Below, one piece after another: positions 4,011 through 11,332 of a DNA stretch of 64,000 nt (position 1 is its first letter; each line of letters begins with the position of its first letter). The stretch covers positions 2,804 through 66,803 of the forward strand of contig JALHRC010000005.1 in assembly GCA_022841645.1 (NCBI GenBank), written 5' to 3'. The position numbers and the translations under genes were made by a program. The notes under the pieces were generated by a model. It was given only the letters and a program-made list of their open reading frames with translations. It searched no databases and was not told the DNA's origin. The DNA is from Minisyncoccota bacterium. GTDB taxonomy: Bacteria; Patescibacteriota; Minisyncoccia; Phycocordibacterales; UBA918.

Positions 4011-4379
4011 CTATTCAAGGTAGAGTCTTGAAATATGCTTGACGAGCACCATAGCAGCGAGGGCCACCGGAATCCACGGATCAATGGTGTGTGTGAGGGT
4101 CTGGAAAATAAGGGCACAGAGTAACACTGCCAATCCAGCCAGGTACGCCAGGCGTCCCGACTGCACCCGCAACTGCACTTCACGCTCATCGGCGGCTGTT
4201 TCAGAAAGAACGAAACTCGCCCAAACAACGAGCAGCACGGTCACACACACAAGAGCCACCAGCTCTCCCATCATTGGCATCCAAAACGGCACCAGATCGG
4301 CAATAACGATCAAGAAAAAACTAATTAAAATCGCAACGGTGGTGTGCATGATAGTTTTGTGCATGAAAATCTTATTCAT
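4011..4379 (-). CDS. Small polytopic membrane protein (DUF2178-like) co-transcribed with an XRE regulator
   Basis: The 122-aa product has 3-4 hydrophobic helices. Its start overlaps the stop of the XRE gene (ATGAATAA overlap). Confidence 0.55.
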   Translation of the reverse strand: MNKIFMHKTIMHTTVAILISFFLIVIADLVPFWMPMMGELVALVCVTVLLVVWASFVLSETAADEREVQLRVQSGRLAYLAGLAVLLCALIFQTLTHTIDPWIPVALAAMVLVKHISRLYLE

Positions 4380-4620
4380 ACGTCAGGGTAAATAAATCTT
4401 CTACTGCCACCTCAAAATAACGCGCGAGAGTAAGCGCAAGTAGCACCGAGGGCGTGTAATTACCCTTTTCGATAGAAATGATGGTTTGCCGCGTTACGCC
4501 CACAGCAATCGCCAACTCTTCCTGCGTTAGGCAGCGCTCGGTACGAAACTGATTAACACAATTAGTAACTTTATAATGCACACTCATCGACAGCAGCATA
4601 GCAAACTGCATCACAATCAC
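4372..4620 (-). CDS. XRE-family helix-turn-helix transcriptional regulator (an alternative start at 4587 gives 71 aa)
   Basis: It carries the Cro/C1-type HTH signature LTQEELAIAVGVTRQTIISIEKG. Confidence 0.75.
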   Translation of the reverse strand: MIVMQFAMLLSMSVHYKVTNCVNQFRTERCLTQEELAIAVGVTRQTIISIEKGNYTPSVLLALTLARYFEVAVEDLFTLTYE

Positions 4621-4713
4621 AATGGCTGTGAAGTGATGGTCGGCAGTCGGGAGTGGCTCATAGGGTCCATGCTAAAAACCCTGCCGCTTCTATCGTGCAC
4701 AATGACCACTCAC

Positions 4714-5079
4714 TCACCACGTCAATAAAAAGTCGGCTGGTTCTCCGGCGCGACCAATGCCATACCAGGTATAGCCTAGTGGGCCACGGCGCTCGGTCAC
4801 GGTGACCGTCCCCGCACTAGCTTCATGAGCGCGAACGACCGTCTGCGCCGTCACTATTTCACCGGCTACCAGGAAGGACACCCGGACACGTTGCCACGTT
4901 TGGCCATCAATAGTGGAATCAAGACCAGTGTAACGACCAGTTTCTACGACGACCGCCTCGCCACTCCCTACCACGCCACTTAAAAAGCGGTCAATACTCA
5001 CGAGTGCCCCCACCAAGAAAAATACTAAGGCAAGAAATGAAAGCGGGAGTAAAAGGATTCGGTCGCGCGAAGCGGGCAA
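4714..5079 (-). CDS. Hypothetical membrane-anchored protein
   Basis: The 121-aa product has an N-terminal TM helix followed by a beta-rich soluble part. No recognisable motif was found. Confidence 0.4.
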   Translation of the reverse strand: MPASRDRILLLPLSFLALVFFLVGALVSIDRFLSGVVGSGEAVVVETGRYTGLDSTIDGQTWQRVRVSFLVAGEIVTAQTVVRAHEASAGTVTVTERRGPLGYTWYGIGRAGEPADFLLTW

Positions 5080-5310: not shown

Positions 5311-5871
5311 ATGCCTACCACCATAAAAATGCCGTTATTGTATTCATTTATTTTAATTATTGCCGTCTTTTTCACTGTTCTTCCCACAGAGCGAGCAGAA
5401 GCCCTCAGCTGTCTGCCGGTAGCCGACTACCTTGAACAGGTAGTTGGTGGTGATGAGTTTGTCTTTATCGGGAGCATGAATGGCGGTAGCGATACTACTG
5501 GCTATTTTACCGAGCACGTGACTGTTACCAAGGCCCTTCAGGGCTATGTACCCGAGCAAATGATGCTCTACCACCGCACCGACGATACGTGGGGCTACTT
5601 CTGCAACCAGGGACCGGGCGAAAAGGGTGAGGCAGGACTCTACGTCGTCGGCTTTGATGAGTACGGCAAATATGTCGTGCACCAACGCCTCGCCCTCACT
5701 GATCCACTAGTAAAGACGCTTGAGAATGATCTTAAGGAGGCCGAAGTCACGGGTGGCATTAGCGAGCACTCGGCTAAGGACCTACGTAACCAGATTGCCG
5801 ACAAGATCCGTACCCTGTTTGCCGAAATTCTTCTCCTTATGAGCGAGTACCGCTACTGGGAAGGACGATAA
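5311..5871 (+). CDS. Hypothetical secreted protein
   Basis: It has an N-terminal signal-peptide-like segment (LLYSFILIIAVFFTVLPTERAEA), two Cys residues, and a TATAAC promoter-like sequence upstream. Confidence 0.5.
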   Translation: MPTTIKMPLLYSFILIIAVFFTVLPTERAEALSCLPVADYLEQVVGGDEFVFIGSMNGGSDTTGYFTEHVTVTKALQGYVPEQMMLYHRTDDTWGYFCNQGPGEKGEAGLYVVGFDEYGKYVVHQRLALTDPLVKTLENDLKEAEVTGGISEHSAKDLRNQIADKIRTLFAEILLLMSEYRYWEGR

Positions 5872-5892
5872 AGAACAGTCAATGTACGTTGG

Positions 5893-5928
5893 CGAAAGCG
5901 GGCGGTCCCTAAAGGGACCGCCCGCTTT
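5893..5928 (+). terminator. Intrinsic terminator hairpin (aaagcgggcggtccc-taaa-gggaccgcccgcttt)
   Basis: A perfect 15-bp stem lies directly downstream of the 5311..5871 CDS. Confidence 0.6.
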
Positions 5929-6087
5929 CATTTCCGGTCATCACTCTACCATAGCCGCTTTTCCCCACCCCTAGTTGACGAGAACGGGGATGGCGGAGTA
6001 TTGTTGATTTGCCAAGGGGTTCTAGAGCAATCTTAACCCCAAGGCGTATCGCCGCACTCACGCGGCAACAGCAGGAAGGACACGACG

Positions 6088-6273
6088 ATGAAGACCCGTT
6101 TCCACCCGCGCCTCGGCGCATCCATGGCGGTCGAACCCGGTGCGAAGAAGCTCGGCACGCACACCCGCCCGATGGCCGTCGGCGCCGCTGCGACGCTGCA
6201 TGGCCAGGCCGCCGAGATCGCGCTGTTCGCCACCGCCCCGTCCCACGCCGCCGGCGGCTTCCTCGGCACCTGA
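6088..6273 (+). CDS. Hypothetical 61-aa Ala/Gly-rich protein in the GC-rich pocket
   Basis: An SD (AGGAAGGA) lies 7 nt upstream of the ATG. The ORF is followed by a perfect 11-bp hairpin (ccctctcgcag-caaaca-ctgcgagaggg, about 6295-6322). Coding status is uncertain because of GC bias. Confidence 0.25.
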   Translation: MKTRFHPRLGASMAVEPGAKKLGTHTRPMAVGAAATLHGQAAEIALFATAPSHAAGGFLGT

Positions 6274-6563
6274 AGCGCCGGCTGCTTCGGCCCTCTCGCA
6301 GCAAACACTGCGAGAGGGATCCCCGTTCTTTCACCCAAACCAAGAAGGAAACACGCACGACTGCGGCGAGGTGACTTCCCTTTTGAGTTTCTCCCCAATC
6401 AGGGAAATGCACCTCGCCGCTCGGCCTTACTTTTGGCCCAGCGGTTTTTTCTTTATATACTTTTTCACTTTCGACTTTAAAATTTTTAACTTTTCTCTTT
6501 TTAATTCTTCATTTTCAACTCTTCACTTTTCACTTTTATCTCTTCCTATTCCCTCCCCTTCAT

Positions 6564-6593
6564 TTGACAGTAAAAGCTGCCTGCCAGTATAGT
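6564..6593 (+). promoter_or_regulatory. Near-consensus sigma70-type promoter: TTGACA-N18-TATAGT with an upstream AT-rich UP-like tract
   Basis: TTGACA lies at 6564-6569 and TATAGT at 6588-6593. A 130-nt T-rich tract with repeated cttttcac motifs sits at 6430-6560. Confidence 0.45.
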
Positions 6594-6668
6594 AAAAGCG
6601 CCTGGGGAGCAAACACTTCTTTGGCAGCTGGGCGGATTCCCCGCCCAACAAACCAACAGGAGAGAACG

Positions 6669-6896
6669 ATGGGATGTGGGCAGGGCGGAAGTGGGCGTGG
6701 CGCTCCCAGGTCGTCACCCGGTACGGGCAACAGTGACATCGCGCCGACGTTGTCGGTCTTCGGGCGGATGTCCGGTCAACGTGGCCCTGATGATGTCGGC
6801 GGCGGCAATGGCGGCAGAGCGCTCGTCCTCGGCGGCATGGCTACTGCGATCGTGAGCGCGAGCGACGGGCGGGCCGTGCCCCACGTGGTGCGCTGA
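6669..6896 (+). CDS. Hypothetical 75-aa Gly-rich protein with a long structured 3' UTR
   Basis: A strong SD (AGGAGA) lies 5 nt upstream of the ATG. Nested perfect hairpins follow downstream (6918-6952, 6967-6998, 7000-7030). The ORF could instead be a GC-bias artefact within an ncRNA. Confidence 0.25.
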   Translation: MGCGQGGSGRGAPRSSPGTGNSDIAPTLSVFGRMSGQRGPDDVGGGNGGRALVLGGMATAIVSASDGRAVPHVVR

Positions 6897-7052
6897 CAAT
6901 GCGAAAGAGCGGCCGGTAGCTCCGAAAGCTACCAGTAACCGGCATGACGGGAAAGGCCCAGCGGACGAGCACCGCTCGCACCGCTGGGTCTCCATTCCAA
7001 AAACGATTTGAGGGATGGAGCACTGCTCACCCACTACAATTGCCCGCACAGC

Positions 7053-7079
7053 CACCCGGCCGTCGGGCGGTTTTTATTT
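7053..7079 (+). terminator. Intrinsic terminator (ccacccg-gccgt-cgggcgg then TTTTTATTT)
   Basis: A GC stem plus T-run ends the transcription unit that starts at the 6564 promoter, about 475 nt. Confidence 0.45.
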
Positions 7080-7379
7080 ACGCCACATACATTCAACCGC
7101 CGGCACTCCAAAATATAGCGAGCGCCCTACCGGTCAACCACCTCTCTCCTACTATCATGCATGATAGTAGGAGAGACGATTAGAGAGTGCTGTATTAGTC
7201 GCGTAGTTTTGACAATATTTTATATTGGCATACTATGCAGCTGCCATTTAACGAAATGGTCCCTGAAACCTTTTTTAGGGCGCTAGCGAGCAGAGAGGGA
7301 GTTAAGTTGCCCCCCAACCCGGCTCTTAATCTCATTCGCGTCAAACTCTTCGGCCACCCCTCGGGGTGACCGAACTTTT

Positions 7380-8468
7380 TTATGACTCCTCGTCGAGGCG
7401 CGCCGGCTTATCGAGGGTGAGTACATCCACACCGGCCGACTCGCCCGTGATGCGCAGCACGTCCTTGTCTACCTTCGCTAGTTCTTTATACCCAGCGTTG
7501 TAGTGATTGACGCTCGTCGCAAGCGCGTTGCCGAGCTTTTGGTAGTAGTCTTCATACTTGCCAATATGCGTTCCTAGTTTTTCCACGTTCTTGATGATAT
7601 CGATAGCCTTCTCTTCGATCTCAAGCGCTTTAAGGCCCTGGAGCACGGTCTGCAGGTAGGCGAGGAATGACGTGGGCGAAACAATAATCACCCGATACTT
7701 CCCGGCTGCCCGTTGGATGAGGTTCTCTTCCCCGCCAGTAATGGTATTGGAGAGGAGGTCGTAGTAGACACCTTCCGAAGGAATAAACATGAAGGCAAAG
7801 TCCATCGTCTTTTCACTCGGTCGGATGTACTTGGCGGTTTCGGTAATGCGCAACTTAAGGTCATTGATGAAGGTTTTTTCTAAAGTAGCGCGTTCTGTCG
7901 CGTCGCGCGCTTCAATGAGGCGATTGTAGTTTTCGAGCGAAAACTTTGAGTCAATCGGAATCACTTTGTCTTTCACAAACACCACAGCGTCGACAATTTC
8001 GGCATTGCCAAAGGCGTACTGCATTTGAAAGCTGCCGGGTGGCAGCACATTTTGCAGTACCGTTTCGAGGTAGTACTCGCCCAAAATTCCCCGTTGCTTC
8101 GGATTTTTAAGCACGTCTTGCAGTTGCTTGAGCTGCTCCGCAAAACCAATCACTTGGCGGTTGGTTTCTCCGAGGCGCGTCAACCCTTCCGTTACCTCGC
8201 GCACAATTTTCGACGACTCCGAGAGTTGGCTCTCGACCGTGCGCTGGATGGTACGACTCGATTCGCCGAGGCGCGCGTCGAGCGTGCGGGTGGAATCAGC
8301 GAGCCGTTCGTTCATCGTACGCGCGAGTTCTTGCATACCTTGCTGGAGGAGCAGGATACTTTGATCGGCCTCGGCTGGCTTTTCAGTGCGTTTTCGAAGA
8401 AGTAGGTACACCAAAAAGCCGTTTCCGAGGAGGAGCGCGACCACCAACACAATAATCAGCCATTCCAT
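7380..8468 (-). CDS. rmuC: DNA recombination protein RmuC (the ORF extends to 8516; the start is chosen at MEWLII)
   Basis: An N-terminal TM helix is followed by a long coiled-coil and the RmuC core (IPIDSKF, MFIPSEGVYYD, VSPTSFLAYLQ). Confidence 0.8.
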   Translation of the reverse strand: MEWLIIVLVVALLLGNGFLVYLLLRKRTEKPAEADQSILLLQQGMQELARTMNERLADSTRTLDARLGESSRTIQRTVESQLSESSKIVREVTEGLTRLGETNRQVIGFAEQLKQLQDVLKNPKQRGILGEYYLETVLQNVLPPGSFQMQYAFGNAEIVDAVVFVKDKVIPIDSKFSLENYNRLIEARDATERATLEKTFINDLKLRITETAKYIRPSEKTMDFAFMFIPSEGVYYDLLSNTITGGEENLIQRAAGKYRVIIVSPTSFLAYLQTVLQGLKALEIEEKAIDIIKNVEKLGTHIGKYEDYYQKLGNALATSVNHYNAGYKELAKVDKDVLRITGESAGVDVLTLDKPARLDEES

Positions 8469-8567
8469 AATTGAATTGCCACCAGAATACCATACCCTCC
8501 CTTGCCCACCGGGCACCTAGGGTCTATGCTGGTTTTTGGAGGACGCGGTTCCTCACAGGAGGCAACG

Positions 8568-8741
8568 ATGACCATCGCTGAAAGGGCCGGGGCAGACACT
8601 CGCTACGACATACTCGGCGAGTACGTGTTGGCACTCCTCGGACTAATCGCTGGGCTCATGCTGATCTGCTTCGTTGGTTTTTCTTTCGAGTCAACGTCCC
8701 CACGGGGGACAACCTGCACAGTTGAAAGGACAGTCCGATGA
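8568..8741 (+). CDS. Small single-TM protein 1 of 6 (57 aa)
   Basis: An SD (AGGAGG) precedes the ATG. The TM segment is YVLALLGLIAGLMLICFVGF. The stop overlaps the next start (ATGA). Confidence 0.45.
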   Translation: MTIAERAGADTRYDILGEYVLALLGLIAGLMLICFVGFSFESTSPRGTTCTVERTVR

Positions 8742-8875
8742 GTCTTGAGTCAGCACCGCCAAAAACCGGTCGCGACTTGCTTGGCGCGTTGGTCGCCATT
8801 GTGCTCGCGCTACTGGTGTACTTCTCAAAACCACGCACCACCAACCCCAACGCTAGGGAGGAGAACCATGACTGA
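8738..8875 (+). CDS. Small single-TM protein 2 of 6 (45 aa)
   Basis: An SD (AAAGGA) precedes the ATG. The TM segment is LLGALVAIVLALLVYF. It overlaps both neighbours. Confidence 0.4.
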   Translation: MSLESAPPKTGRDLLGALVAIVLALLVYFSKPRTTNPNAREENHD

Positions 8876-8999
8876 AAACAGCGACCACTGGTGGATTTCG
8901 CCTTTGTTTCTTTTCATTTTGTTCGCGCTCATCCTGTGGGCGCGGAGCATCGCACTCAAGGATCACCGGTTTCCCCGTGATCCACGAAAGGGTGAATGA
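8868..8999 (+). CDS. Small single-TM protein 3 of 6 (43 aa)
   Basis: An SD (GGGAGGAG) precedes the ATG. The TM segment is WWISPLFLFILFALILWA. Confidence 0.45.
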   Translation: MTENSDHWWISPLFLFILFALILWARSIALKDHRFPRDPRKGE

Positions 9000-9000
9000 C

Positions 9001-9183
9001 ATGGCCATGATGGAGGAGCTGCTCGGGCGGGCCTATGGAAACTGGCACTGGCTGGCAATAATGGGCGTGGTGGTCCTGCTCATGCTCCTGGTGCCGAAGT
9101 CTCACTCCACCGGGATGTACACCGCCTCAACAGAGGAAGACAACGAAGCTGGGGAGGATGATCACCATGTTCCTGACCCCTAG
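9001..9183 (+). CDS. Small single-TM protein 4 of 6 (60 aa)
   Basis: An SD-like AAAGGGTG precedes the ATG. The TM segment is WHWLAIMGVVVLLMLLV, followed by an acidic tail. Confidence 0.4.
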   Translation: MAMMEELLGRAYGNWHWLAIMGVVVLLMLLVPKSHSTGMYTASTEEDNEAGEDDHHVPDP

Positions 9184-9382
9184 GGAGCTCGCAGAAGCGA
9201 CGCTGGACGCGTGCTGTTCGGGGTTCCGGTTGTGGCTCACTCTTATCTGGGGATCGTCGGCGGGATACATTATCCCCGTTCATGAACGTCGCGAACCGAC
9301 GATCAGGACCCTATCCGGTGCCAAAGTGATCTCGCTCTGCGAAGTGCGTGCACAGCGCAAGAAAGCAGGAGGGATGCGTTGA
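9167..9382 (+). CDS. Small protein 5 of 6 (71 aa)
   Basis: An SD (GGGGAGG) lies 9 nt upstream of the ATG. The product has a CC pair and an amphipathic or hydrophobic segment (FRLWLTLIWGSSAGYIIPV). Confidence 0.35.
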   Translation: MFLTPRELAEATLDACCSGFRLWLTLIWGSSAGYIIPVHERREPTIRTLSGAKVISLCEVRAQRKKAGGMR

Positions 9383-9524
9383 CTGCGTCCATCCCCTAAC
9401 TGCGCCCGGACCCTTATTGGCCCGGGCGCTCTACGTTAGTACCAGTATTTTCTTGGCAGATAAAAACGAACCGGTGTATAGTGCACGCGGCTACGCGTTG
9501 CAAACATTGGACAAGAGGGGTGTC

Positions 9525-9620
9525 ATGGGGTTGGAATGGCTCATTTTCGCTGGTGTGGTGGTGGTCGCGGTGGGCGGCTTCCTCTTCTGGCTCGTCGGTC
9601 GCTTGTTTTTCAGCGACTAA
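9525..9620 (+). CDS. Small single-TM peptide 6 of 6 (31 aa)
   Basis: An SD (AAGAGGGG) precedes the ATG. The TM segment is WLIFAGVVVVAVGGFLFWLVG. Confidence 0.4.
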   Translation: MGLEWLIFAGVVVVAVGGFLFWLVGRLFFSD

Positions 9621-9660
9621 TCGTCCGCGGGGCGGCTGGTAATGAACGAAACTTCGTTCA
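9617..9660. terminator. Long perfect hairpin (gcggctggtaatgaacgaa-ac-ttcgttcattaccagccgc), probably a bidirectional terminator
   Basis: A 19-bp perfect stem ends the small-protein operon and separates it from yqeY. Confidence 0.5.
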
Positions 9661-9681
9661 TTACCAGCCGCCCTTAAAGTT

Positions 9682-10152
9682 ATGCTAAACTACTCCCATA
9701 TGACCCTCCACGAAACACTCAAAGATACGCTCAAAGAGGCACTGAAGGCTCGCGACGAAGTACGCCTACGCACCGTGCGCAGCGTCCTTACGGCGATCAC
9801 GAACGAACTAGTCGCTACGGGCAAAACCCCTCAAGACATCATCGACGACAACGGCTTTCTTTCCGTGGTAAAGCGCCAGGCCAAGCAGCGCCGTGAGTCG
9901 ATCGCACAATTTGATGCTGCGGGCCGCACTGATCTCTCAGAGCCCGAGAAGGCCGAGCTCGCCATCCTTGAAGCCTACCTCCCTACCCTCATGAGCCAGG
10001 AAGCCATCCGTCCGATTGCTGAAGCCAAAAAGGCCGAACTCGGTGTTACAGACAAGAGCAAGCTTGGGCAGCTCGTGGGCGCCGTTATGAAAGAACTCCA
10101 GGGCAAAGCAGATGGCGGCGACGTGAAGGTGGTGGTGGAAAGTTTATTTTAG
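9682..10152 (+). CDS. yqeY: GatB/YqeY domain protein
   Basis: It carries YqeY signatures (LKEALKARD, LTAITNE, ILEAYLP, GQLVGAVMKEL). The start could instead be at 9700. Confidence 0.8.
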   Translation: MLNYSHMTLHETLKDTLKEALKARDEVRLRTVRSVLTAITNELVATGKTPQDIIDDNGFLSVVKRQAKQRRESIAQFDAAGRTDLSEPEKAELAILEAYLPTLMSQEAIRPIAEAKKAELGVTDKSKLGQLVGAVMKELQGKADGGDVKVVVESLF

Positions 10153-10163
10153 CTCCTTCGTCC

Positions 10164-10406
10164 ATGTCTGAAGCACTACCATCTCATTCCCGTGAAAACT
10201 TAGTTTCATTAGAGCAGGAGACTTTTGAGGCGCTGAGAGAGCAGCTTACTCCCAGTAGTAATCGTGAGGACGTACGCAGGCTTGTCTTTAGTTACCTACT
10301 TGAAAATAAACATATGATGCCAGCTGACAATGTTGAGACAATCACAGATATGATTATGAACCGGGTCGGAAACGACGAACCCTACCGTGGGCCACATTCA
10401 AAATAA
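10164..10406 (+). CDS. Hypothetical protein (80 aa)
   Basis: The ORF lies 12 nt after yqeY and has a weak SD. Confidence 0.3.
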   Translation: MSEALPSHSRENLVSLEQETFEALREQLTPSSNREDVRRLVFSYLLENKHMMPADNVETITDMIMNRVGNDEPYRGPHSK

Positions 10407-10507
10407 TTCTTAGCCAAATGCTTGACTGGTGTAACGTAGGTAGCGTATAACGTTTCCGTGCCACCCGGTGGGGATCGGGGCGAGGCACAAGCACCTGGGA
10501 GGGGTTC

Positions 10508-10840
10508 ATGCTTATCATTGAGTTGCGTCGTGACTGCTTGGCCGTCTGTGGCACCAGCGAGAAGCTGGGGCCAGGCAGGTACATGTCAGTGGAACTGGGC
10601 AAGGTCGGGGCGACGAGCGTGCAGTTCTGGCGCGATGAAGAAACTGCCAGCCGGGAAGTGCGCCTGATGTGCAGCAAACCTGGACGTCTCCTCGCACTAG
10701 TCAAGGAGGTAATCCGGCGCTGTCACGAAAAGTGTCGTATGGCTGCGGGTCAGGCACAGAAGCGCACCGGGACAGCGAAGCGCCCGGGCTCGGGCACAGC
10801 TCGTGGCCACACGGTCAGCGAGCGGTCGGGCATGCACTGA
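10508..10840 (+). CDS. Hypothetical protein (110 aa) in the second GC-rich pocket
   Basis: A promoter-like TTGACT-N18-TATAAC (about 10418-10447) and an SD (GGGAGGGG) precede the ATG. A GC hairpin plus T7 terminator sits at about 10865-10905. Confidence 0.35.
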   Translation: MLIIELRRDCLAVCGTSEKLGPGRYMSVELGKVGATSVQFWRDEETASREVRLMCSKPGRLLALVKEVIRRCHEKCRMAAGQAQKRTGTAKRPGSGTARGHTVSERSGMH

Positions 10841-10966
10841 ATCGGCGTCGCCGACACGAAGGTTCCGGGCGGCACGCATTCGCGCGCCGCCACGGAGCTT
10901 TTTTTATTTATACTTGCTCACCACTACCCTTTTACGCTATAACAGTGGCGGCAACTGGAGGGGGAC

Positions 10967-11251
10967 GTGGAAGAAAAACTGATCAAAGTAAAAATCTGCA
11001 GAACCGAAGTGGTAATTAGTGGCGAACGACCATGTCCATACTTTTATGACACCGCTGTGCGGGAATGCGTACGATTTTTCCTCGACACAGCCGCCAAGTA
11101 CCACTGTCGCATCGACATGCGCGCAAAAGATGACACCTATCGCATCGCGCTGGTGCGTCAAAACGGCTGCGACATAGCTGCAGTAGCAGTGGACGTAATC
11201 TGCTGGCTTAACCACCGACAGATTCCGCACACCGTGAAAAAAATACTCTAG
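10967..11251 (+). CDS. Hypothetical Cys-rich small protein (94 aa, GTG start)
   Basis: An SD (GGAGGGGG) lies 4 nt upstream of the GTG. The product has six Cys residues. A perfect terminator hairpin (ccccgagacgc-cag-gcgtctcgggg) follows at 11252-11277. Confidence 0.4.
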   Translation: MEEKLIKVKICRTEVVISGERPCPYFYDTAVRECVRFFLDTAAKYHCRIDMRAKDDTYRIALVRQNGCDIAAVAVDVICWLNHRQIPHTVKKIL

Positions 11252-11332
11252 CCCCGAGACGCCAGCGCGTCTCGGGGTTGCTACATTTTAAATAGTGTTG
11301 TAAAAATAGAAGCAGACGTTAGGAGAAACGCT

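Follow-up and report, generated by a model that had tools for sequence, protein, structure and literature searches.

Two tandem units in a GC-rich pocket

We analyzed a GC-rich pocket in a 64-kb stretch of DNA (the window; positions count from its first letter) from the chromosome of a Candidatus Kaiserbacteria bacterium, a member of the Candidate Phyla Radiation (CPR). The pocket is flanked by rmuC, by a gene for a hypothetical 186-aa protein (p186), and by genes for an XRE-type helix-turn-helix (HTH) protein, thioredoxin, and msrAB. Read from its signals, the pocket is two complete tandem monocistronic units, which we call A (5975-6450) and B (6564-7079). Each has the -35 and -10 hexamers at a spacing of 16 to 18 nt and the GC-rich hairpin with a T-run that mark an independent transcription unit (Table 1).

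The whole window has a GC content of 51.8% (standard deviation of 0.067 in 200-nt windows), and the bodies of the two units reach 65% (6010-6440) and 64% (6600-7080). The two highest 200-nt peaks of the 64 kb, 0.755 and 0.71, were found within 6008-6391 and 6618-7014, respectively. With these peaks, and with a GC content at third codon positions (GC3) beyond the host range, the composition of the pocket is atypical. An earlier note on this DNA had described one 1.2-kb pocket of about 65% GC between flanks at roughly 55%. The 65% was borne out, but the flanks measured about 52%, and the pocket is not continuous, with a T-rich trough splitting it into two GC-rich blocks. A promoter scan of 5700-7600 returned five promoter-like sites, compared to 0.7 expected by the scan.

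The promoter of unit A corresponds to those of the homologous units described below. The Shine-Dalgarno (SD) sequence of this unit, AGGAAGGA (6073-6080), is unpaired in the leader folds and precedes a mini-open reading frame (ORF), m61, whose GC contents at the three codon positions are 0.69, 0.61, and 0.89 (periodicity, P = 0.002) and which has a purine at codon position 1 in 0.64 of its codons. It is the sole SD-preceded short ORF in the window with a GC3 of at least 0.8. The folded unit (6000-6445) was more stable than dinucleotide shuffles, with a z score of -5.4. Most of the 3′ motif that is conserved in the family has been lost from this unit.

Unit B has a promoter that aligns with those of the relatives, a leader that starts with AAAAGCG, an unpaired SD sequence of the family type (6657-6664), and a Gly-rich mini-ORF, m75, that is predicted as a gene in public assemblies. 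Its fold (6595-7085) was also more stable than dinucleotide shuffles (z = -3.1). The earlier note had seen a single unit at 6600-7075; that unit is real and is our unit B, but a second complete family unit, our unit A, had been overlooked. On the other hand, the elements that the note had listed were all recovered: the 61-aa and 75-aa ORFs with an SD-like sequence before each, the unit B promoter (11 of 12 positions), the perfect 11-bp hairpin, and the hairpin-dense tail, with hairpins up to 7035, terminator stems at 7055-7072, and a T-run.

Table 1. Features of the pocket and its surroundings, in window coordinates
Feature	Position	Strand	Remark
XRE-type HTH gene	4372-4620		
p186, hypothetical, 186 aa	5311-5871	+	upstream of the pocket
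p186 terminator hairpin, left edge of the pocket	5894-5929	+	17-nt perfectly complementary arms; Logan contig break inside
Unit A promoter, TTGACG-N18-TATTGT	5975-6004	+	9/12 positions (promoter scan)
Unit A 5′ leader	6011-6066	+	stem-loops 6011-6045 and 6051-6066; folds with z of -2.4 to -2.7
Unit A mini-ORF m61 (MKTRFHP...AAATLHG...)	6088-6273	+	61 aa; TGA stop; "MKT" subtype
Unit A 3′ untranslated region (UTR)	6274-6450	+	z of -4.8 for 6316-6465
Unit A perfect 11-bp hairpin	6291-6318	+	
Unit A family-motif remnant, GAAGGA	about 6346-6351	+	
Unit A long hairpin	6363-6420	+	
Unit A terminator-like hairpin	6417-6444	+	then T6 (6445-6450)
T-rich spacer between the unit A terminator and the unit B promoter	6445-6560	+	54% T, 4% G
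Unit B promoter, TTGACA-N18-TATAGT	6564-6593	+	11/12 positions
Unit B leader	6597-6664	+	stem-loops 6597-6629 and 6630-6646; z of -3.2
Unit B mini-ORF m75	6669-6896	+	75 aa; Gly-rich; TGA stop; coding status uncertain
Unit B 3′ UTR GC-rich hairpins	6909-6991	+	6915-6933 nested in about 6909-6945; 6954-6991
Unit B family hairpin, GAGGG-AUG-GAGC-ACU-GCUC-A-CCCAC	7011-7035	+	asymmetric internal loop; regular expression and alignment
Unit B intrinsic terminator	7038-7079	+	stems 7055-7067 and 7058-7072, then T-run (terminator scan)
Perfect 34-nt palindrome, TCTCTCCTACTATCATG/CATGATAGTAGGAGAGA	7143-7176	not assigned	half-site kept in L206; presumed association with the family
Possible third unit	7209-7378	+	promoter TTGACA-N16-TACTAT (7209-7236), 10/12 positions; transcript of about 140 nt
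rmuC	7380-8516	-	

The unit family in Kaiserbacteria and its coding signal

The relatives of RmuC were from Kaiserbacteria and other Parcubacteria metagenome-assembled genomes, the best species-representative genome being 74% identical. A protein search found closer relatives (81 to 87% BLAST identity), and we compared their contigs with the window. The resulting family has 11 units from nine genomes, namely, the window and L089, L090 (the same sequence as L092-95), L091, L154, L206, L209, L210, and L211, with L154 obtained from metagenomes by scanning the DNA for a pattern. The RmuC proteins of the eight relatives are 82 to 86% identical to that of the window. In all eight, rmuC has a homologous unit next to it on the downstream side, in the same orientation as in the window, that is, convergent with rmuC and divergent from rplU (ribosomal protein L21) where rplU is on the contig. 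In six of these genomes it sits between rplU and rmuC; of the other two, the contig of L206 stops before that point, and in L209 another gene takes the place of rplU. Two tandem units are present in L210, as in the window.

In the distant relative L011, rplU comes directly after rmuC with nothing between them, indicating that the unit is an insertion specific to this subclade. We found no rplU, recR, or dnaB in the 64-kb window; the absence of rplU and recR places the pocket at a synteny breakpoint, yet it is still attached to rmuC. The rmuC-anchored loci of 80 species genomes showed neither synteny with nor similarity to the pocket. No members were found in the same 80 loci by a regular expression of the motif, a covariance model, or a scan for high-GC3 ORFs, the lone covariance-model hit (in L011) being inside dnaB. 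In L089, the DnaB helicase gene (8642-11308, minus strand) carries an intein with a LAGLIDADG homing endonuclease domain in the precomputed Pfam annotation.

The members have a common anatomy. They begin with a promoter block, CTTGACR-N13-ATGAAAAYATGG, in which a -35 element and an extended -10 element, 17 nt apart, may be recognized. The leader start AAAUGCG, from which unit B differs as given above, is common to the family and is followed directly by a stem-loop, which varies in sequence and reaches almost to the SD sequence. All 11 leaders fold as a stem-loop that leaves the SD sequence free (Stouffer Z = -6.7 versus shuffles). The SD sequence is CAGGAGAG, as in unit B, or GAGGACG in the "MKT" subtype, and it lies 5 to 8 nt before an ATG in all members. 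The start region of unit A, GGACACGACGATGAAGACC, is like those of L206 and the unit L210b, and its peptide has the N terminus MKTxxH and the AAATL(T)HG segment in common with the L206, L091, and L154 peptides. After the ORF come one to three perfect GC-rich hairpins, placed at the same position but with sequences unrelated between genomes, and then an A-rich linker. The stem of the intrinsic terminator covaries, with CCAUCG/CGGUGG in L090 and CCGUCU/AGACGG in L154.

A conserved 3′ element of the family is a hairpin, GARGG-AYG-GAGC-loop-GCUC-A-CCYUC, with a 3x1 internal loop, found in 8 of the 11 units, including B, and lost in A, L210b, and L211. The RNAalifold consensus includes it, with pair 17-39 being AU in four units, GC in two, and GU in one; a double change was seen for one pair in this hairpin and for 4 of the 17 pairs overall. 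In L206, one base pair of the outer stem is lost, on both sides. The covariance model R1, built from seven members with L206 left out, scored 65.6 bits on the unit B hairpin, a training member, and found the untrained L206 at an E value of 2.4e-6; it returned nothing real over about 1 Mb of other Parcubacteria loci. We rejected a K-turn for this hairpin by inspection: the bulge flanks do not form tandem G·A pairs, and two members have G in place of the key A.

Neither the units nor their peptides resembled a known family. At gathering thresholds, Rfam returned four tRNAs and nothing else from the whole window; at E values up to 10, the matches within 5800-7500 were chance matches far under gathering, and the relatives gave none at E values up to 1. 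ARAGORN found the four tRNAs and no transfer-messenger RNA (tmRNA) in the window. The absence of RNase P, tmRNA, and signal recognition particle (SRP) signatures that the earlier note had reported was thus confirmed, at permissive Rfam thresholds as well, and the Rfam families 6S, OLE, GOLLD, ROOL, HEARO, and raiA, among others, were likewise without a match. Searches of Pfam, NCBIfam, PHROGs, and PDB with all candidate frames and the family peptides gave nothing significant. In a database of 5.8 billion proteins, a word-index search with m61 returned only itself, and nothing but family members was retrieved with a profile built from five peptides. The two weak hits that phmmer gave, run exhaustively over 1.84 billion representatives, were low-complexity junk (repetitive translations). 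BLAST found nothing in phages and one 43-nt chance match in plasmids, and scans of viral contigs with the motif, palindrome, and promoter-block patterns returned chance hits only. In metagenomes scanned for the 3′ motif, 106 of 107 matches were chance matches in coding DNA; the remaining one was L154, a Kaiserbacteria contig with the order rplU, unit, rmuC.

Coding signals were pronounced in most members. GC3 was 0.83 to 0.97 in 9 of the 11 ORFs, compared to 0.47 to 0.72 at positions 1 and 2, and 8 of these 9 were individually significant (P values of 5e-3 down to 1e-10); the host ORFs in the window had a GC3 of 0.27 to 0.73. In L154, A/T third positions return immediately in the in-frame codons past the TGA. 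The fraction of purine at codon position 1, 0.59 to 0.74 in the family ORFs and 0.60 in host genes, argues for the sense strand. Coding on the antisense strand was ruled out by this pattern, the SD-ATG arrangement, and the orientation of promoters and terminators. Between L091 and L154 the frame is kept over several indels, both ORFs reach an identical block, ARPHDPSGNEPNFDELIG, and a 51-nt stretch differs by a single change. The L089, L090, L091, and L154 peptides have GDPxA, NGET, and RxH islands in common. All 11 mini-ORFs stop with TGA, often as TGAC, whereas only 16 of the 63 long host ORFs of the window use TGA. Because of the periodicity, the SD-ATG arrangement, the frame kept over indels, and the TGA stops, we take the ORF to be translated in the family and in unit A. 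Judged by periodicity, start context, and frame over indels, unit A qualifies as a coding small ORF, and unit B, an uncertain case, does not.

The peptides are hydrophilic, and their composition, which is high in G, A, T, R, and P and low in L, I, V, F, and W, fits a disordered small protein. An AlphaFold2 peptide model had a mean predicted local distance difference test score of 56 and no secondary structure, a confidence too low for a fold search. The ORFs had no structure beyond that expected from composition in synonymous-codon shuffles (Stouffer Z = +1.1), which makes a selected RNA fold within the ORF unlikely. A leader peptide or attenuator was rejected, since every unit is closed by a terminator and rmuC, the next gene, is read toward it.

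These results bear on the idea, raised in the earlier note, of a structured RNA. If each whole unit were a structured noncoding RNA (ncRNA), the ORFs would be accidents of a stop-poor, GC-rich sequence. A GC-rich intergenic island in a mid-GC genome, with a strong promoter and a terminator on either side, would suit such an RNA, as would the fold scores of both units and the lack of homologues or domains for the peptides. However, the high GC3 of the nine ORFs cannot come from a noncoding RNA, the SD sequence stands at its fixed distance from the ATG in all members, and the indels between L091 and L154 preserve the frame. Moreover, the folding stability comes from the UTR hairpins and not from the ORF, and Rfam and ARAGORN were negative. 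With this coding signature and no Rfam match, the idea is not supported for the whole unit, and we regard it as quite unlikely; what stands of the earlier suggestion is a possible RNA-level role for part of the unit, mostly in unit B.

The extreme GC3 is not a fading trace of an old transfer. Fourfold-degenerate sites of rmuC are only 34 to 56% identical between these genomes and are thus saturated, so a GC3 of about 0.9 must be actively maintained. The gene for ribosomal protein L21 on the same contigs has a GC3 of 0.51 to 0.68, and translational codon selection is an unlikely cause, since L21 shows no such bias. The 65% GC is best read as the sum of G/C third positions and GC-rich stems, not as foreign DNA. 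One possible cause is selection for an AU-poor, nuclease-resistant coding region, which would suit the stem-loops at both ends. Another possible cause is local GC-biased gene conversion at a recombination-prone locus, to which the synteny breakpoint, the tandem duplications, the variable neighbors, and a high-GC3 ORF in L091 point.

This L091 ORF (2982-3452, minus strand), located between the unit and rmuC, encodes a predicted membrane protein of 156 aa and has a GC3 of 0.84. Its composition suggests a regional GC-raising effect or co-acquired DNA.

Such co-acquired DNA would belong to a further explanation, in which a recombination-prone site took up the pocket from a donor of high GC content, e.g., a host bacterium, a plasmid, or a phage. 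The codon usage and the exclusive TGA stops resemble those of high-GC bacteria, there is a synteny breakpoint in the window, gene content varies among the relatives, the L091 neighbor shares the high GC3, and in L011 rmuC is directly beside rplU. However, nine genomes with saturated synonymous sites have the same unit, with its promoter, leader, and 3′ motifs, at one and the same locus. An acquisition, if there was one, must therefore be ancient, and its GC3 should have decayed. Phage, plasmid, viral, and protein-database searches returned no donor-like sequence, and no mobility genes were noticed next to the pocket. A recent acquisition from a high-GC donor, as which the suggestion in the earlier note can be read, is not supported, and we consider captured DNA in general very unlikely.

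The edges of the pocket and its assembly

The pocket is bordered by two perfect palindromes, the p186 terminator hairpin on the left and a 34-nt palindrome on the right. Contigs from seven Sequence Read Archive runs of one project were 100% identical to the window over the pocket and both junctions, and they end only at these two palindromes. Among public short-read contigs, L001 (Logan) ends at window position 5905, 34 bp past p186, and L082, L083, and L087 end at 7172. Short-read de Bruijn assemblers are expected to break at perfect palindromes, so that the contig ends at the pocket edges are explained without chimerism.

A weak promoter-like site on the minus strand, TTGACC-N16-TATTTT (7137-7110; 9 of 12 positions), would run antisense to the 3′ end of unit B. 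It is the sole promoter-like site on that strand, and no terminator was found for it.

Two further explanations, an assembly chimera, which the earlier note had allowed for, and a type I toxin-antitoxin locus, can be judged from these data. The sharp change in composition at the edges and the Logan contig end would fit the former, and the weak antisense site would fit the latter. However, the junctions recur at 100% identity in seven independent assemblies, and the breaks coincide with perfect palindromes. The peptides, being hydrophilic, rich in G, A, T, R, and P, and without a membrane helix, are unlike type I toxins, which we rejected as a candidate. Both are extremely improbable.

The right-hand palindrome may have a role of its own. 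L206 (about 4711-4740, minus strand) has its 13-nt half-site, CTCCTACTATCAT, without a change despite saturated neutral sites, and this element lies about 25 nt upstream of the -35 element of the unit in L206 and 32 nt upstream of the third promoter in the window. At the equivalent place, L210 has a different inverted repeat, CTTCTCCCTAGGT...ACCTAGGGAGAAG. A pattern scan of viral contigs gave no match to the palindrome. A dimeric regulator could use it as an operator; the window has the XRE-type HTH gene listed in Table 1.

Downstream of this palindrome, the region 7209-7378 contains small hairpins, an SD-like GAGAGGGAG, and a possible 19-codon ORF starting with TTG, and it ends in a hairpin and T-run abutting the rmuC stop codon. 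With these signals, a degenerate third unit and a small RNA (sRNA) are both conceivable. The T-rich spacer between units A and B is a degenerate 7/14-nt repeat with the consensus ATTTTTAACTCTTC that is not present in the loci of the relatives. Its period is about 7 nt, unlike the 10 to 11 nt expected of phased bending tracts. The earlier note had called this tract "UP-like", which was not established, as it is a degenerate heptamer repeat not present in relatives.

Possible functions and comparison with known systems

The feature is real, previously undescribed, and narrow. On balance, we lean toward the view that the pocket holds two diverged tandem paralogues of a small-gene unit specific to one clade of Kaiserbacteria, producing a stabilized and probably highly expressed small-protein mRNA. 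The order within a unit is a sigma-70-type promoter, a 5′ stem-loop, an unpaired strong SD sequence with its ATG, a short ORF with almost exclusively G/C-ending codons that encodes a hydrophilic peptide predicted to be disordered, a UGA, one to three GC-rich stem-loops, the 3x1 hairpin in the units that have kept it, and an intrinsic terminator. The terminal stem-loops and the AU-poor coding region would give a long-lived and efficiently translated mRNA, and such an mRNA would in turn give an abundant small disordered protein. The conserved 3′ hairpin might add a protein-binding or processing role at the RNA level. The data show this anatomy, the homology and synteny of the units, the coding periodicity, and the active maintenance of GC3, from which we infer the level of transcription, mRNA stability, translation, and any cellular role. 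A small-protein gene with a structured UTR, which the earlier note had put forward as one option, is the best supported of its suggestions, with units in eight relatives and 9 of 11 ORFs periodic; the high expression that went with it is a prediction.

Several observations weigh against this view. The ratio of nonsynonymous to synonymous differences (pN/pS) was 0.96 to 1.5 in the five alignable pairs, so that classical purifying selection is not demonstrated, with the caveat that pS is lowered by the codon bias and that the alignments are unreliable. The shortest ORF has 27 aa and the longest 101 aa, and most of the peptides cannot be aligned across the family. The UTR motifs (leader and 3′ hairpin) are better conserved than the peptides, which fits an RNA-centered function. 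Codon periodicity is absent from the L211 ORF and from m75, whose GC contents by codon position are 0.68, 0.67, and 0.74 (P = 0.65). In m75, GC3 reaches 0.8 to 0.9 in the 3′ third of the ORF only, and this ORF may be decaying or driven by its Gly-rich composition. The covariation support is thin, coming from only 11 units in nine genomes. Promoter strength, the 5′ ends, and translation are all deduced from the DNA. Finally, the G/C third positions could be caused by mRNA-stability selection, biased gene conversion, or a regional effect.

Some of these points would be explained if the units were dual-function or mainly regulatory RNAs whose leader and 3′ hairpin/terminator are the functional parts, e.g., as a 3′-UTR-derived sRNA or a protein-binding RNA. 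The ORF would then be translated to protect or position the RNA or be dispensable, maybe so in unit B. In favor of this, the promoter, leader, and 3′ hairpin are kept where the peptides cannot be aligned, pN/pS is about 1, ORF length varies nearly fourfold, and the B and L211 ORFs are aperiodic. The 51-nt stretch that is nearly identical in L091 and L154 at saturated divergence indicates a nucleotide-level constraint. However, no target or partner is identifiable from the sequence, there is no Rfam match, and the ORFs have no structure above composition. Unit A and L210b are without the 3′ motif and still have periodic ORFs, and the inner stem of the hairpin is invariant, hence the little covariation. 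We hold such a regulatory RNA to be possible though doubtful.

Another candidate is a new kind of translated RNA element, in which being translated and GC-rich would matter and the peptide sequence would not. This reading follows from the constancy of the frame, start, UGA, G/C third positions (about 95%), and flanking RNA motifs, while the peptide drifts at a pN/pS of about 1. It might be a ribosome-engaging stable RNA or a dual-function riboregulator of an ultra-small CPR lineage, and we put it forward tentatively, as rather unlikely. Unusually strong local GC-biased gene conversion in a bacterium may be the alternative to it.

Dual-function sRNAs and small-protein mRNAs, such as RNAIII/hld of Staphylococcus aureus, SgrS/SgrT of Escherichia coli, and SR1/SR1P of Bacillus subtilis, are natural systems for comparison with the mRNA that we favor. 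Like RNAIII, SgrS, and SR1, the units would make an autonomous, strongly promoted, stem-loop-rich transcript of a few hundred nucleotides enclosing a short ORF, and their noncoding parts are conserved at least as well as the peptide. They differ in having no sequence or Rfam likeness to these RNAs and no identified base-pairing region or target. To our knowledge, neither an extreme G/C third-position bias nor peptide turnover at a pN/pS near 1 is a feature of RNAIII, SgrS, or SR1.

With stem-loop-stabilized mRNAs, e.g., the 5′ stem-loop of E. coli ompA and the 3′ repetitive extragenic palindromic (REP) or terminator hairpins, the units share a stem-loop near the presumed 5′ end (judged where the leader start could be placed), several GC-rich hairpins ahead of the terminator, and an unpaired SD sequence. 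The likeness is one of design only, and the 5′ end of the units is the one predicted from the promoter.

RNase P RNA, tmRNA, SRP RNA, 6S RNA, OLE, GOLLD, ROOL, and raiA resemble the units as GC-rich intergenic islands with a promoter and a terminator, a signature that GC-rich intergenic region (GC-IGR) searches for new ncRNAs rely on (PMC8632094). The units differ from these structured ncRNAs in giving no covariance-model match and no tmRNA, and their GC excess lies largely in ORF third positions. The peptides are also comparable with lineage-specific orphan disordered small proteins in being short, hydrophilic, rich in G, A, T, R, and P, and domainless, with low-confidence structures, and their ORFs with lineage-specific orphan small ORFs in their narrow taxonomic range and fast change of sequence and length. 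They differ from such ORFs by a conserved and elaborate UTR architecture and a GC3 of about 0.9 or higher. The closest analogies thus appear to be functional only, and membership of a known system cannot be claimed.

For GC-rich-island searches for ncRNAs, the locus is a caution that such an island can result from a small ORF that lacks annotation and has structured UTRs. Its most interesting aspect is the maintained G/C bias at synonymous sites, and the main general point is evolutionary, in that these sites are kept at about 90 to 97% G/C, compared to 50 to 70% in ordinary genes. The locus is therefore a clean natural case in which three forces may be told apart, namely, GC-biased gene conversion, translational selection, and selection that acts on the stability or composition of the mRNA. 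CPR (Patescibacteria) genomes are small and poorly understood, and a conserved orphan unit such as this one, with its probably high expression, is a candidate for CPR biology that is specific to a lineage.

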